Assembly (NCBI RefSeq): GCF_006345805.1
Contig: NW_021825842.1
Location: forward strand, 1-14,539
Direction: 5' to 3'
DNA: 14,539 nucleotides
Source of the DNA: Octopus sinensis
Taxonomy: Eukaryota
Of this stretch, positions 5,303 to 14,095 are shown piece after piece (within the stretch, counting starts at the first letter, position 1; each line of letters opens with the position of its first letter). The notes below the pieces were generated by a model. It was not told the DNA's origin. It was given only the letters and a program-made list of their open reading frames with translations, and did not search any database. The position numbers and the translations under genes are program-made.

Positions 5303-5510
5303 CGTAAACACACCATCACTGGTTGTCAAGCGGTTGAAGGGGGAAAACGAAAGCAGAAAGACACAGACACATAGATATTTACAAACATACGACGGGATTC
5401 TTTCAGTTTCCGTTCACCAAGTCTACTCACAAGGCTTTGGTCGGACGAAGGTTATTACAAAAGAAACTTGCCCAAGGTACAATGCAGTGTCACTGAACCG
5501 GGAACCATGT
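5303..5510 (-). mobile_element. SINE family A, diverged central fragment
   Basis: cgtaaacacacc..ggttgtcaagcg..acgacggg..tttcagtttccgt..ctcacaaggctttggtcgg..acttgcccaaggt..gaaccatgt matches 7629-7905. Confidence 0.88.
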
Positions 5511-5610
5511 TTCCAAGTTTAAATGACATTGCGAACTAAGCTAATTCATTCTCTCACAGGTACAAACGATTATACTACGAGACCAAACGCATTTGCCAAT
5601 GCATGTAATT

Positions 5611-5686
5611 ACACACACACACACGCACATATGTATGTATATACATATATATATACATAAACGTACATATGTATATATATACGTAT

Positions 5687-5735
<49 letters not shown>
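5611..5735. repeat. (CA)/(TA)n microsatellite
   Basis: Direct. Confidence 0.95.
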
Positions 5736-5736
<1 letters not shown>

Positions 5737-5791
5737 GGAAATGTACTCGCATAGCAAGTAATTTGATCTGAGATCGTGTGCTGAAACGAAT

Positions 5792-6051
5792 ACAATTGCA
5801 GCGTGGAAGGTGTTTGTTAGCCATTTAAGAAACACACAAAAGCCGTTCGATTCACTTAAAAATTTAAGTTTAATTTGTCAAAATATTTTCGTCGCTAAAA
5901 TCTGCGATGCAGCACGGATTTTGTCAGTGAACAGGTCGCGGATTTTAGCGACGAAAATATTTTGACAAATTAAACTTAAATGTTGAAGTGAATCGAACGG
6001 CTTTTGTGTGTTTCTTAAATGGCTTACAAACACCTTCCACGCTGCAATTGT
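5792..6051. repeat. Long inverted repeat: arms 5792-5907 and 5936-6051, 28-nt spacer; probable inverted pseudo-LTRs of a Penelope-like element (element about 5736-6051)
   Basis: Arms of 116 bp, ungapped, 4 mismatches by manual comparison; (TA)n on both sides of the element; contains a hammerhead motif. Confidence 0.95.
5920..5969 (+). ncRNA. Minimal type I hammerhead ribozyme motif, G3:C8 core variant
   Basis: Stem I tttgtca(5920-26)/tgacaaa(5963-69); core GTGAACA(5927-33); extra G; stem II gtcgc(5935-39)/gcgac(5948-52); GAAA(5953-56); palindromic ATAT; U16.1=5961, H17=5962. Confidence 0.78.
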
Positions 6052-6724
6052 TATATATATATATTATGTATGTATACATTTGTGTGTGTATGTTTTATAC
6101 TTTTTGAAAGTGAAACTTCACACAACGCGAGTGAATTTCACCGTTACTATCTTCAGCCAAAATGAAAGTAATAAAATAAATGATGTTATATCTATACCAA
6201 AATAAACAGATTTTGAATGTGGATGTAAGTGTGTGTGTATTTGTGTGTGTATGTGCCTCTGTGCGCGCATTCATATACATACATATATATATATAAGTCG
6301 AAACAAAATCTATTGAAGCTTTCAGGCAATTTGAAATATTTCACTAACAACTACAACAACAACAACAACAACAAAAAGGAAGAAACAAGATTTCATATCC
6401 GAATGCGTATAAAAAGACGGAGCTGCTATGCTACCATATATGAAACTTTGCGGAGATGCAAAGATTACAAATGTTATTAACCTGTCTGCAATTCTAATAT
6501 ATTCCAAATGATTTTAAAGTTTTTAATATTCTTAATTCTCAATCCCAAATATATTAAGATAACATTGTTTCGGGTTGTCTTCTAAAAGCGTCTCTATGTT
6601 GATTATATCTTAATTTGAAAGGATTTCCAGTCAAACTATTATAATCTTTAGAAAGTGAATTATCTTTTGAATTCTATTATAAACGATGGAATTCTGAAGA
6701 CATAAATTGTTTAAGGAGCTTTTG

Positions 6725-7514: not shown

Positions 7515-7706
7515 GTGGCCATGCTGGAGCACCGCCTTTAGTCGAGCAATTCGACCCCAAGACTTATTCTTTATAAGCCTAGTACTTATTCTATCGGTCT
7601 ATTTTGCCGAACCGCTAGGTTACGGGGACGTAAACACACCAGCATCGGTTGTCAAACGATGTTGGGAGGACAAACACAGACACAAATACACACACACACG
7701 CATACA

Positions 7707-7748
<42 letters not shown>

Positions 7749-7947
7749 TATATATATATATATATATATAGATATATATATAACGACGGGCGTCTTTTAC
7801 TTTCCGTCTACCAAATCCACTCACAAGGCTTTGGTCAGCCCGAGGCTATAGTAGAAAACACTTGACCAAGGTGCCACGCAGTGGGAATGAACCCATAACC
7901 ATGTGATTGGTAAGCAAGCTATCTACCACACAGCCACTCCTGCACCT
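7515..7947 (-). mobile_element. SINE family A, near full length, with tRNA-like head and internal (TA)n(TG)n
   Basis: Minus-strand head aggtgcaggagTGGCTGTGTGGtag...ggGTTCATTCCcactgcgtggcaccttggtcaagtg has A/B boxes; body matches 13691-14070; extreme 3' end missing. Confidence 0.93.
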
Positions 7948-10023: not shown

Positions 10024-10463
10024 CTTTTATCTCTTATCTTTCATATGTTTCAGTCATTTTTGATTGCGGCCAAGCTGGAGCTCCCTCTTAAACAAATCCA
10101 AAGCAAGACTTTTTAAAAAAAAATTAAGCGTGGTACTTACTCTATCCGTGTACTTTTGCCGAGCCGTTAAGTTACAGGACGCAAACAAACCAACAACAGT
10201 TATCAAGCGGTGATGGGTGACAAACACACAAGCTCAAACGCATGCACACACATTCAGACATGCACGCACACACATACATACATATGTACAATATACCTAT
10301 ACAACGGGTTTCTTTTAGTTTCCATCTACCAAATCCACTGACCAGACTTTGGTCAGTCCGAGCCTATGGCAGAAGACCCTCTCCTAAAGTGCCACGCAGT
10401 GAAACGGAACCTGGGATCATAGTCGGGAAGCAACCTCCTTACTACGTAGCTTCACCTGTGCCT
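10024..10463 (-). mobile_element. SINE family A, full length but diverged
   Basis: tgtttcagtca..tgcggccaagctggagc..gtacttactctatc..ttttgccgagccg..ttccatctaccaaatccact..gtgccacgcagtg..cctgtgcct is collinear with 7515-7947 and retains the 3' end. Confidence 0.9.
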
Positions 10464-10906: not shown

Positions 10907-11221
10907 TGTTTGTTTGTTTGTTTGTTCCTTCTCGATCCACGCGTGGCTCATTAGGGCCGGTTTCCCAGTTTCCTTGGCGTATAGGTTACCCACCTGGACG
11001 GGACGCCGGTCAGTCGCAGGTGAGCTGCAAGATGTAGGAGAAAAGAGTGAGGGAAAGTTGTGGCGAAAGAGTCAGCAGAAGTTCGCCGTTACCTTCTGCC
11101 GGAGCCGCGTGGAGCTTAGGTGTTTCACTCATAAACATACACATCACCCGGTCTGAGATTCGAACCCGCTATTCCTCGACCGCGAGTCCGCTGCTCTAAC
11201 CACTAGGCCATGTGCCTCCAC
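10906..11221 (-). mobile_element. Full-length tRNA-derived SINE, family B2, (AAAC)n tail
   Basis: Minus-strand head gtggaggcacaTGGCCTAGTGGttagagcagcggactcgcggtcgaggaatagcggGTTCGAATCtcagaccggg; tail at 10906-10926; possible ataca TSD (10901-05/11222-26). Confidence 0.92.

Positions 11222-12052: not shown

Positions 12053-12060
<8 letters not shown>
11657..12060 (-). mobile_element. Probable non-autonomous Helitron (Lep1-like layout)
   Basis: Minus-strand 3' end CTAG|T (11657-60) after a degenerate GC-rich hairpin (11668-11684); minus-strand 5' region taataaatgcaaaattctgtctatccgtctgt; 5' TC terminus not seen. Confidence 0.55.
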
Positions 12061-12139
<79 letters not shown>

Positions 12140-13276
12140 TTTTTTTCTTCTTTCAAATTTGCTATCATTTCTTGCCGAGTGTCTTCCCGACTCCTAGGGC
12201 AAAGAAACTCATAGTATACATTGGTAGGCCATTAAACCAAACTCAGTAGTTCGTTCATTTTTTTTTTTTTTCTTAAAGTTAAATTAAAATACATGAGCAG
12301 CAACAGTTCTCACATCGACAATGCTCTTCTCAATACGTGTGATGTACCAGTTAAGACAATCTTTTGCACTTCTTGCAGGGATGGTAAGCCAGGGATCATT
12401 CTCATATAATTTTCGGTTCCCTTCTTGATCATTCCTAGTGCTCCTACGATCACTGGTATTGTAACCGCCTTGAGATGCCACATTTTCTCAATTTCAATGA
12501 GTAGGTCTTTATATTTTCTGAGCTTGTCAAACTCTTTCGCTGAGATATTATGATCACAGGGGATGCTCATGTCGATCAATAAGCAAACTTTATTGTTTTG
12601 GTCTTTCACAACAATATCTGGTTTATTGGCCTTGTTGGTTCGGTCTGTATCCTGGAAAGTCCCACAGAATGGTTACATTTTCTCCTTCAGTTACAGCCTC
12701 AGGGTGGTGATTATACCACTTGTCGGCAGTTTTGATATTGTAATGCCGACTTATTAGCCAGTGGAGATATTGGCCAACTCTGTCATGTCTTAATTTATAC
12801 TCCACTGGTGCTAAGACTTTACATCCAGAGATTAGGTGGTCCACTGTTTCAATCATGTCGTTGCAGAATCGGCATTTTGGGTCTGCTCCATTTTTCATCA
12901 CATTGGCCTGGTAGTTCCGAGTTAATAGGCTTTGATCTTGAGCAGCCAGGATGAAACCTTCGCTCTCTGCTTTTAGCCCTGAGCTCCGTAGCCACTGATG
13001 GGTTTGCTTCTGGTCAACATCAGCTTGTTTGCTGTGGGTCACATATTTGCCGTGCAGAGGTTTCTCCTCCCACCTATCAGCCAATTGCTCGTGCGCTTTT
13101 TTCATTGCCATCATTTTCACCTTCTTTGCAACAATAGTTGCCGTACTTCCCTCGGGTTGTTCAGTTTGGGTATCCTGCACGAGATCAATAGCAAAGTTTT
13201 TGCTTTACTTTATGATAGAATGAAGCTTCTTTCGTCTCTCGTGATTTTCCACGAGCTTTAGCATCCAGTCATTCGA

Positions 13277-13277
<1 letters not shown>
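12055..13277 (-). mobile_element. 5'-truncated R4/Dong-type RLE non-LTR retrotransposon with 3' UTR (12139-12309) and (TAA)n tail (12055-12138)
   Basis: CCHC knuckle and PD-D endonuclease; (TAA)n at both ends, the established target of Dong elements. Confidence 0.92.
12310..13277 (-). pseudogene. Disrupted C-terminal part of retrotransposon ORF: post-RT region, zinc knuckle, restriction-like endonuclease
   Basis: KPLHG; CRFCNDMIETVDHLISGC; RHD; ILWDF; after a frameshift near 12652, TDRTNKANKPDIVVKD..LIDMSIP..KYKDL..PVIVGALG; in-frame stop at 13205-13207; RT core absent. Confidence 0.92.
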
Positions 13278-13337
<60 letters not shown>

Positions 13338-13688
13338 TTATATGTGACATTTGCATTGTATTTGTACAAGTTGGCTCTAAGCCTCACCCTGAGACCTCAA
13401 GAGACAACAAGTTAGAAGTTCGTGTTGGTGTTATACCTAGGGTGCCATATATTTGGTTTTGTACACAGTGTTGTTCTAGAGAATGTTTAAGAAACTTAAG
13501 AAAATCACGTTTGTTTTAAAACTTGAGATTATATAGAAAGTAACTTACGTAGGATATGGGTAGTTCCCATGAGGACTATCTTTTGAATTTCTGCCATTTT
13601 GGGGTTTCCTGGTATCTGAGCTACGTAGCTATCATCCCCTTTTGCTACTATTCACAGGGCACCTATGACAACAGGCATTATTTTAGTC
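13278..13688 (-). mobile_element. 3' end of a second, distinct R4/Dong-type element with its own 3' UTR and (TAA)n tail (13278-13337)
   Basis: 13684->13529 translates as KIMPVVIGAL*IVAKGDDSYVAQIPGNPKMAEIQKIVLMGTTHILRKLLSI*, homologous to TIPVIVGALGMIKKGTENYMRMIPGLPSLQEVQKIVLTGTSHVLRRALSM*. Confidence 0.9.
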
Positions 13689-13690
13689 AT

Positions 13691-13829
13691 CATGGTTCTA
13701 GGTTCAGTCCCACTGCGTGACACCTTGAGCAAGTGTATTCTACTACAGCTTCGGGCCGACCACAGCCTTGTGAGTTGATTTGGTAGACGGAAACTGAAAG
13801 AAGCCCGTCGTATATATATATATGTGTGT

Positions 13830-13882
<53 letters not shown>

Positions 13883-14095
13883 GTGTTGTGTGTGTGTATG
13901 TGTGTGTGTGTTTGTGGCCCCAACATCGTTTGACAACCGATGCTGGTGCGTTTACATCTCTGATATCTAACGGTTCGGCAAGAGAGACCGATAGAATACG
14001 TACTAGCTTACAAAGAATAAGTCCTGGGGTCGATTTGCTCGACTAAACGCGGGGCTCCAGCATGGCCGCATTCAAATGACTGAAACAAATAAAAA
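13691..14095 (+). mobile_element. SINE family A lacking the A-box part of the head; internal (TA)n(TG)n
   Basis: catggttctagGTTCAGTCCcactgcgtgacaccttgagcaagtg...catggccgcattcaaatgactgaaacaaataaaaa; close reverse-complement match to 7515-7905. Confidence 0.93.

Follow-up and report, generated by a model that had tools for sequence, protein, structure and literature searches.

The insertions closest in layout to the locus described here are those of Penelope-like elements (PLEs). Craig et al. (PMC8557442) describe an inverted, 5′-truncated copy lying beside the terminal repeat of these elements (pLTR), a tail of 30–40 bp that is often present at one end only, and a bias toward (TA)n targets. 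For Pen2a_Av of Adineta vaga, Arkhipova et al. (PMC3846280) likewise describe a shorter inverted pLTR with an optional 31-bp tail, give the head-to-head order as the commonest arrangement, and place 12 initial ORF codons within the pLTR, or 22 when the tail is included. PLEs also carry minimal hammerhead ribozymes, whose hallmarks according to Cervera and de la Pena in 2014 (PMC4209133) are an extra base between positions 9 and 10.1, a G10.1-C11.1 pair and a palindromic loop 3; a single minimal motif was found inactive in that work, which also reports motif pairs on opposite strands 100–700 bp apart. For PAc, a Poseidon element of Anolis carolinensis, Frangieh et al. in 2024 (PMC11167929) show with a purified PLE protein that both strands are cut and extended, with a preference for AT-rich targets, and that the tail corresponds to the stretch between two reverse transcription start sites. 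The PAc hammerhead requires protein for cleavage, which is partly rescued by the C3G/G8C double change, and it is dispensable for insertion in vitro.

The window, by which we mean the whole stretch of 14,539 nucleotides of Octopus sinensis DNA that was analysed, is microsatellite-rich animal DNA, for which a sigma-70 promoter scan was dismissed as irrelevant. An earlier note on this DNA had described a 116-bp inverted repeat between two (TA)n tracts, and the self-alignment bore this out, with ungapped arms that are complementary at 112 of 116 positions and TA on both sides. The four mismatches pair 5818 with 6025, 5858 with 5985, 5861 with 5982 and 5903 with 5940, and the longest inverted stretch free of mismatches measures 41 nt, compared with at most 18 nt in 100 shuffles. 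The coordinates also agree with how the note had divided a hammerhead-like ribozyme over the repeat, that is, the 5′ strand of stem I and the core lie within the 28-nt spacer and the 3′ half lies in the right arm, and the left arm provides the minus strand with a 3′ half only (Table 1). This half lacks G10.1.

Table 1. Parts of the inverted repeat and its flanks, in window coordinates.
Feature	Position	Strand	Basis
TA-rich microsatellite, left target flank	5629..5735	.	period 2
Family tail of 56 nt on the 3′ side of the inverted copy, missing at the right end	5736..5791	-	read contigs
Left arm, inverted copy, 5′-truncated inside hammerhead stem II	5792..5907	-	self-alignment
3′ half-ribozyme: 4 bp of stem II, GAAA, palindromic loop and 3′ strand of stem I; without core and without 5′ strand of stem I	5874..5907	-	
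Head-to-head junction, possible microhomology	5902..5907	.	5/6 bases complementary to 5936-5941
Spacer of 28 nt, formed by the 5′ portion of the direct copy, with 5′ strand of stem I, core and G10.1	5908..5935	+	
Minimal type I hammerhead-like motif	5920..5969	+	
Right arm, direct copy without tail	5936..6051	+	
Frame of 11 codons from an ATG to the end of the arm, possible start of a parent ORF	6019..6051	+	
(TA)6, right target flank	6052..6063	.	

The layout resembles that of Pen2a_Av and of the insertions described in PMC8557442. A direct copy and a shorter inverted copy lie head to head, the tail is one-sided, a short ATG frame runs off the end of the repeat, and no clear target duplication is seen; at this locus a duplication is unreadable inside (TA)n. 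The locus differs from these insertions, as they are described there, in having no ORF body between the repeats, and its tail measures 56 nt versus 30–40 in the descriptions given by PMC8557442 and PMC3846280. The Penelope-like reading of the earlier note finds support in this match to the published inverted, 5′-truncated pLTR with a one-sided tail, and the architecture of the locus is likely that of an ordinary PLE insertion. Because no RT/GIY-YIG partner was found, membership is assigned by architecture only, at the level of PLEs and not of a named clade.

We consider it highly probable that the locus is a non-autonomous, PLE-type head-to-head insertion and that the sequestration of its ribozyme is a by-product. 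On this model, the palindrome probably arose when a pLTR without any protein-coding part inserted once, as two head-to-head copies, in a TA microsatellite. A PLE RT/GIY-YIG protein supplied in trans would have cut both strands in (TA)n, reverse transcription would have been primed at two alternative RNA sites, one of which gives the tail and the other does not, and the two truncated cDNAs would have been joined through a few complementary bases at 5902–5907. In an RNA read through from the left, the motif would then be locked in the 116-bp duplex. The two start sites that bracket the tail in PAc, as described in PMC11167929, support a model with two primers, and the locus resembles PAc in having a 3′ tail on some copies, an AT-rich target and a hammerhead upstream of the 3′ end of the insertion.

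Evidence on the wider repeat family came from read contigs matched to 5500–6400 at 80% likeness. The analysis covered four of the 24 listed sequencing runs (X1, X2, X5 and X9, none of them RNA), which stand for four organism codes, were available as contigs only, and include the possible source sample, X1. The matching contigs numbered 8512, 11289, 5849 and 3607 in the four runs. The summed depth in X1 was approximately 3 million on the arm and approximately 40 on the unique flanks (5500–5592 and 6090–6213), which indicates at least thousands of family copies, although the summed depth is inflated where contigs overlap and does not itself give a copy number. In X2, X5 and X9 the unique flanks were uncovered, which proves nothing on the presence of the insertion there.

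These contigs revealed a point absent from the earlier note, namely that 5736–5791 belongs to the family as a tail that only one end of the locus carries. Contigs span the tail into the left arm (5749–5894 in X1, X2 and X5; 5750–5896 in X9), the summed depth at 5748–5778 is 0.2–1.8 million, and the right copy runs straight into TA after 6051. Relative to the family body, the depth in all four runs was 0.28–0.53 on the tail and 0.06–0.14 on the 5′ part, ratios that are rough, as overlapping contigs and clipping at the variable loop II can distort them, and that fit an optional tail and 5′ truncation. The corresponding ratio at the junction, though equally rough, was 8e-5 to 3e-4, and a difference of three to four orders of magnitude indicates that most copies are without the junction. 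In other copies, the loose ends lose the consensus upstream of approximately 5906–5907, and AT-rich loose ends lie 5′ of other copies in the read contigs. At the locus, the direct copy starts near 5902–5908 and has no tail, and the inverted copy, which retains the 56-nt tail, has its start within stem II, so that two copies of one abundant repeat stand 5′ end to 5′ end with both 3′ ends abutting (TA)n.

The same depths bear on two readings to which we give hardly any credence. A MITE whose terminal repeats measure 116 bp and whose target is TA would have the long inverted repeats, the lack of an ORF and the TA flanks that are seen here. However, the left repeat is not terminal, as the tail lies beyond it, the internal junction is not a fixed part of the family, whose contigs mostly pass from 5896 into the remaining ribozyme and not across the junction of this locus, and the depth declines toward the 5′ end; the MITE reading is already largely refuted. 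The other is an artefact of assembly or of read fold-back, with which it would agree that no listed contig spans the whole stretch and that no contig exactly matching the junction was isolated. Four differences between the arms and an end of the palindrome at 116 bp speak against such an artefact, as do the spacer and tail, which are asymmetric family sequence, and the two unique flanks, which differ from each other and are each covered at a depth of approximately 40 in X1.

Both arms have the letter of the window at 5975, 5995 and 6001, where 52–66% of the X1 depth reads otherwise, and both have the same loop II. The common minority letters point to one template or one subfamily, with a rough value of 0.05 for independent draws, which is weak since the letters may be linked within a subfamily. 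The left side departs from the commonest other family letter at 5818, 5858 and 5861, which are three of the four mismatches, and at 5791. The fourth mismatch, at 5903, falls in a 6-base stretch that may be the 5′ end of the direct copy, perhaps serving as microhomology. All five changes private to the locus (5791–5903) lie on the left, inverted side and none on the right (p ~0.05), a clustering that the two-copy insertion model does not explain.

A route with the same PLE origin would be fold-back self-priming of one cDNA at 5902–5907 to give the inverted arm, followed by later trimming of the right tail. Self-priming has been proposed for inverted PLE junctions, and endonuclease resolution for the tail, in the accounts of PMC3846280 and PMC8557442, and both the common minority letters and the junction complementarity (Table 1) fit such a route. 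However, fold-back of the right arm could not yield the 56 bases missing there without the extra trimming step, and fold-back is not needed for the tail, which the data on two start sites in PMC11167929 explain without trimming. We regard this route as possible but doubtful, and retain the joining of two truncated cDNAs as the preferred explanation.

We then consider the motif itself, whose positions are numbered in the standard hammerhead scheme. Stem I (5920–5926/5963–5969) consists of seven Watson-Crick pairs on the plus strand, the core occupies 5927–5933 with one extra G at 5934, and stem II (5935–5939/5948–5952) is followed by GAAA at 5953–5956 and the palindromic AATATT at 5956–5961. 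Position 17 is U5962, the NUH triplet is present as U-U-U, and the predicted cut site is between 5962 and 5963. The traits of PLE hammerheads are present in the extra G5934 after A9, in G5935-C5952 as G10.1-C11.1, in GAAA and in the palindromic loop 3. The core reads G3-U-G-A-A-C8-A and departs from the CUGANGA consensus; positions 3 and 8 are still Watson-Crick paired, as G5927:C5932, the reverse of the usual C3:G8.

The hammerhead-like motif is beyond chance. A relaxed type I descriptor that allows any Watson-Crick 3-8 pair had its sole match in the window at 5920–5969, while with G-U pairs allowed it matched two of 300 shuffled windows and two of 5000 shuffled elements, and without them none of either; these rates are somewhat optimistic because the descriptor was drawn up after the motif was seen. 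The same descriptor found no full motif on the minus strand. Rfam gave 80 matches over the whole window, none at the gathering score and mostly to miRNA families on microsatellites, and two weak matches over 5905–5990, with no hammerhead family in either search. Scans with exact patterns of the motif found no locus in viral, metagenome or prokaryote genome contigs. A second 20-mer had no match in genomes and one in metagenomes, which we rejected as a chance match, since only 21–26 nt are in common in a bacterial-gene-like contig. Two 13-mers of the core had no match in the supplement text of PMC8557442, a result of little weight because that text is apparently mainly metadata.

Like the metazoan PLE hammerheads described in PMC4209133, the motif has the type I order, an extra base between A9 and G10.1, the G10.1-C11.1 pair and a palindromic loop 3 that requires a dimer. 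It differs from them in its proportions, with 7 bp in stem I versus 4–5 and 5 bp in stem II versus 7–8, in its UUU triplet, and in its G3:C8 core, whereas the passages of that paper on the core report C3-G8 and U3-A8 only. In PAc, the G3:C8 swap is a laboratory mutant with partial activity (PMC11167929), whereas here it is the family majority; the PAc ORF also starts at stem II, where no ATG is found here. No other letter is listed at a share of at least 5% at 5927, 5932 or 5953–5964 in any of the four runs, and the loose-end consensus before 5947 has the same swapped core in all four, which makes the swapped core and U17 family traits and not local damage. Loop II is variable across the family, and the listed stem variants keep a G-U pair (5952 C>T, 6% in X1; 5965 A>G, 16%).

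The natural G3:C8/U17 core is the sole unusual part of the locus. Among the open-licence PMC and bioRxiv papers that our searches returned, G3:C8 was encountered in engineered mutants and not in any natural hammerhead; the supplements of PMC4209133 and PMC3088659 may list one. Natural covariation of positions 3 and 8 to U3-A8 is published in both of these papers. The poor activity of G17 is attributed in PMC3884650 to a C3-G17 trap, and a G3-C8 variant is stated there, without data, to show higher activity when position 17 is G instead of C. The U17 seen throughout the family would fit an avoidance of the mirror trap, G3-C17, at a cost of still 1.3 kcal/mol for the G3-U17 wobble. On the preferred model, the motif is the G3:C8 form that the PLE minimal hammerhead takes throughout this family, and it would at best be a weak cutter, acting as a dimer or aided by protein.

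The core also overlaps a stretch on the plus strand (5919–5927) that is splice-acceptor-like, with pyrimidines followed by CAG, the G of which is the hammerhead G3. A second splice-acceptor-like stretch is present at 5781–5790 on the minus strand, where the common family variant at 5784 remains a pyrimidine. In the D. virilis Penelope, the end of an intron coincides with helix I according to PMC4209133, and splicing might, as a speculation, explain the change from C3 to G3.

The earlier note had proposed that a read-through RNA forms a long duplex incompatible with the ribozyme fold. Folding, performed as secondary-structure prediction without tertiary contacts, agreed with this proposal, as in 5736–6051 the ribozyme fold, in which stems I and II are formed and the core is open, was predicted to be less stable than the ensemble by 41.5 kcal/mol at 37 °C and by 51 kcal/mol at 18 °C. 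The probability of the arm duplex was at least 0.98 once the chain reached 5952–5970, and a start of the RNA at 5895 or later is predicted to remove the block. For a transcript that starts in the spacer (5908–6051), which had been expected to fold the ribozyme, the prediction did not bear this out: stems I and II would form, with probabilities of 0.90 and 0.997, but the open core would have a probability of only 0.04, with G3 predicted to pair with U17 at 0.65. In the monomer, stem III cannot close because a 2-nt loop would be required, and in the cofold of two copies the intermolecular fold is dominated by the extended palindrome and is uninformative on catalysis.

These predictions also allow us to weigh the idea of a selected RNA switch, in which the start site of the RNA determines whether an active ribozyme forms or dsRNA on which ADAR or Dicer can act. 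The two folds are predicted to be mutually exclusive, and the octopus is described in PMC5625713 as having a high rate of hyper-editing and many potential dsRNA loci. Against such a switch, the junction is present at a depth of roughly 1e-4 of the family body, the open core is improbable and stem III absent in the monomer, and the arms have drifted by four substitutions with no compensatory change among them. The regulatory role implied in the earlier note thus found no support, the junction being rare and the free form unlikely to be active alone, and we judge a selected switch to be very improbable. Given the depth at the junction, sequestration is not a trait of the family. An ADAR origin of the differences between the arms was rejected as well, none of the four being A-to-G on the ribozyme strand. 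Editing of the locus, if it is transcribed in octopus, would be unremarkable because such repeats are the usual substrates of ADAR.

Head-to-tail joints also occur in the family, from 6039 to 5919 in X1 (depth 1587) and from 5964 to 5919 in X2, and account for a small share of its depth. One of these joints implies a short unit that is little more than the hammerhead. Tandem arrays elsewhere could permit the dimeric hammerhead fold, and the joints would be expected if the repeat were a retrozyme or satellite unit multiplying in tandem arrays by way of a circular RNA, with the present locus as a two-copy fragment. A recent preprint (10.64898/2026.07.22.740005) calls animal retrozymes non-autonomous PLE sequences, and like the metazoan non-LTR retrozymes described there and in PMC7229834, the element is non-coding, bears a hammerhead and is probably moved by a PLE enzyme. 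Those retrozymes, as described in the two sources, are tandem arrays with classical type I cores, whereas the locus consists of a single inverted pair whose core is swapped, and the tandem joints are minor in the family. We consider an origin of the locus from such arrays to be improbable; it overlaps the preferred explanation, a PLE-type head-to-head insertion, instead of excluding it.

The search for a parent element centred on the ATG frame of the right arm, which has 11 codons to the end of the arm and extends to 30 in the left copy, where the tail is included; in the tail, all three minus-strand frames are open. No RT/GIY-YIG gene was found in the element or among the ORFs of the window (four of 115 scanned). 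With the first 30–40 codons of the ATG frame, none of 414 candidates proved to be a parent ORF at E up to 1, and the peptide had no Pfam match. The lone match among 1.84 billion representatives, a repetitive sequence of 204 aa with 16 residues matched, was rejected as spurious. A fragment of a reverse transcriptase gene 6 kb away (12.3–13.2 kb) was rejected as the partner, since its relatives are of the zf-RVT and RVT_1 type and it has no GIY-YIG match.

That fragment (12139–13276, minus strand) is the 3′ part of a non-LTR retrotransposon and lies between two (TTA)n tracts (12055–12138 and 13277–13341). It has two frames that overlap near 12623–12672, a weak zf-RVT match and 67 longer relatives, many of approximately 1200 aa with RVT_1, and presumably belongs to a microsatellite-targeting R4/Dong-type element with a restriction-like endonuclease. 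The window further contains six SINE-like copies with 69–87% identity (323–607, 1009–1125, 5367–5510, 7517–7903, 10039–10420 and 13691–14094), among which 7517–7903 and 13691–14067 form an inverted pair, 87% identical over 387 columns, with the potential to form dsRNA. A second dispersed repeat is present at 1416–1615 and, in the opposite orientation and 77% identical, at 11028–11221.

Since any PLE inversion buries whatever its arms contain, a locus that sequesters its own ribozyme is not a new system. It is a clean example on which the two-start-site model of the PLE tail can be tested. A more far-reaching reading, which we put forward tentatively and think rather unlikely, is that the family carries a naturally evolved, working G3:C8 hammerhead with a co-adapted U17 that spares it the G3-C17 trap, that it represents a large, species-spanning class invisible to CUGANGA searches, and that its head-to-head insertions silence their own ribozyme and feed the ADAR-edited dsRNA pool of cephalopods. 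Should the G3:C8 motif be capable of cleavage, hammerhead counts based on descriptors overlook an abundant class, and the C3G/G8C rescue has a natural counterpart. Should it be inactive, a conserved dead hammerhead would point to a structural role for the hammerheads of PLEs, which would fit their dispensability for insertion in vitro as described for PAc in PMC11167929.
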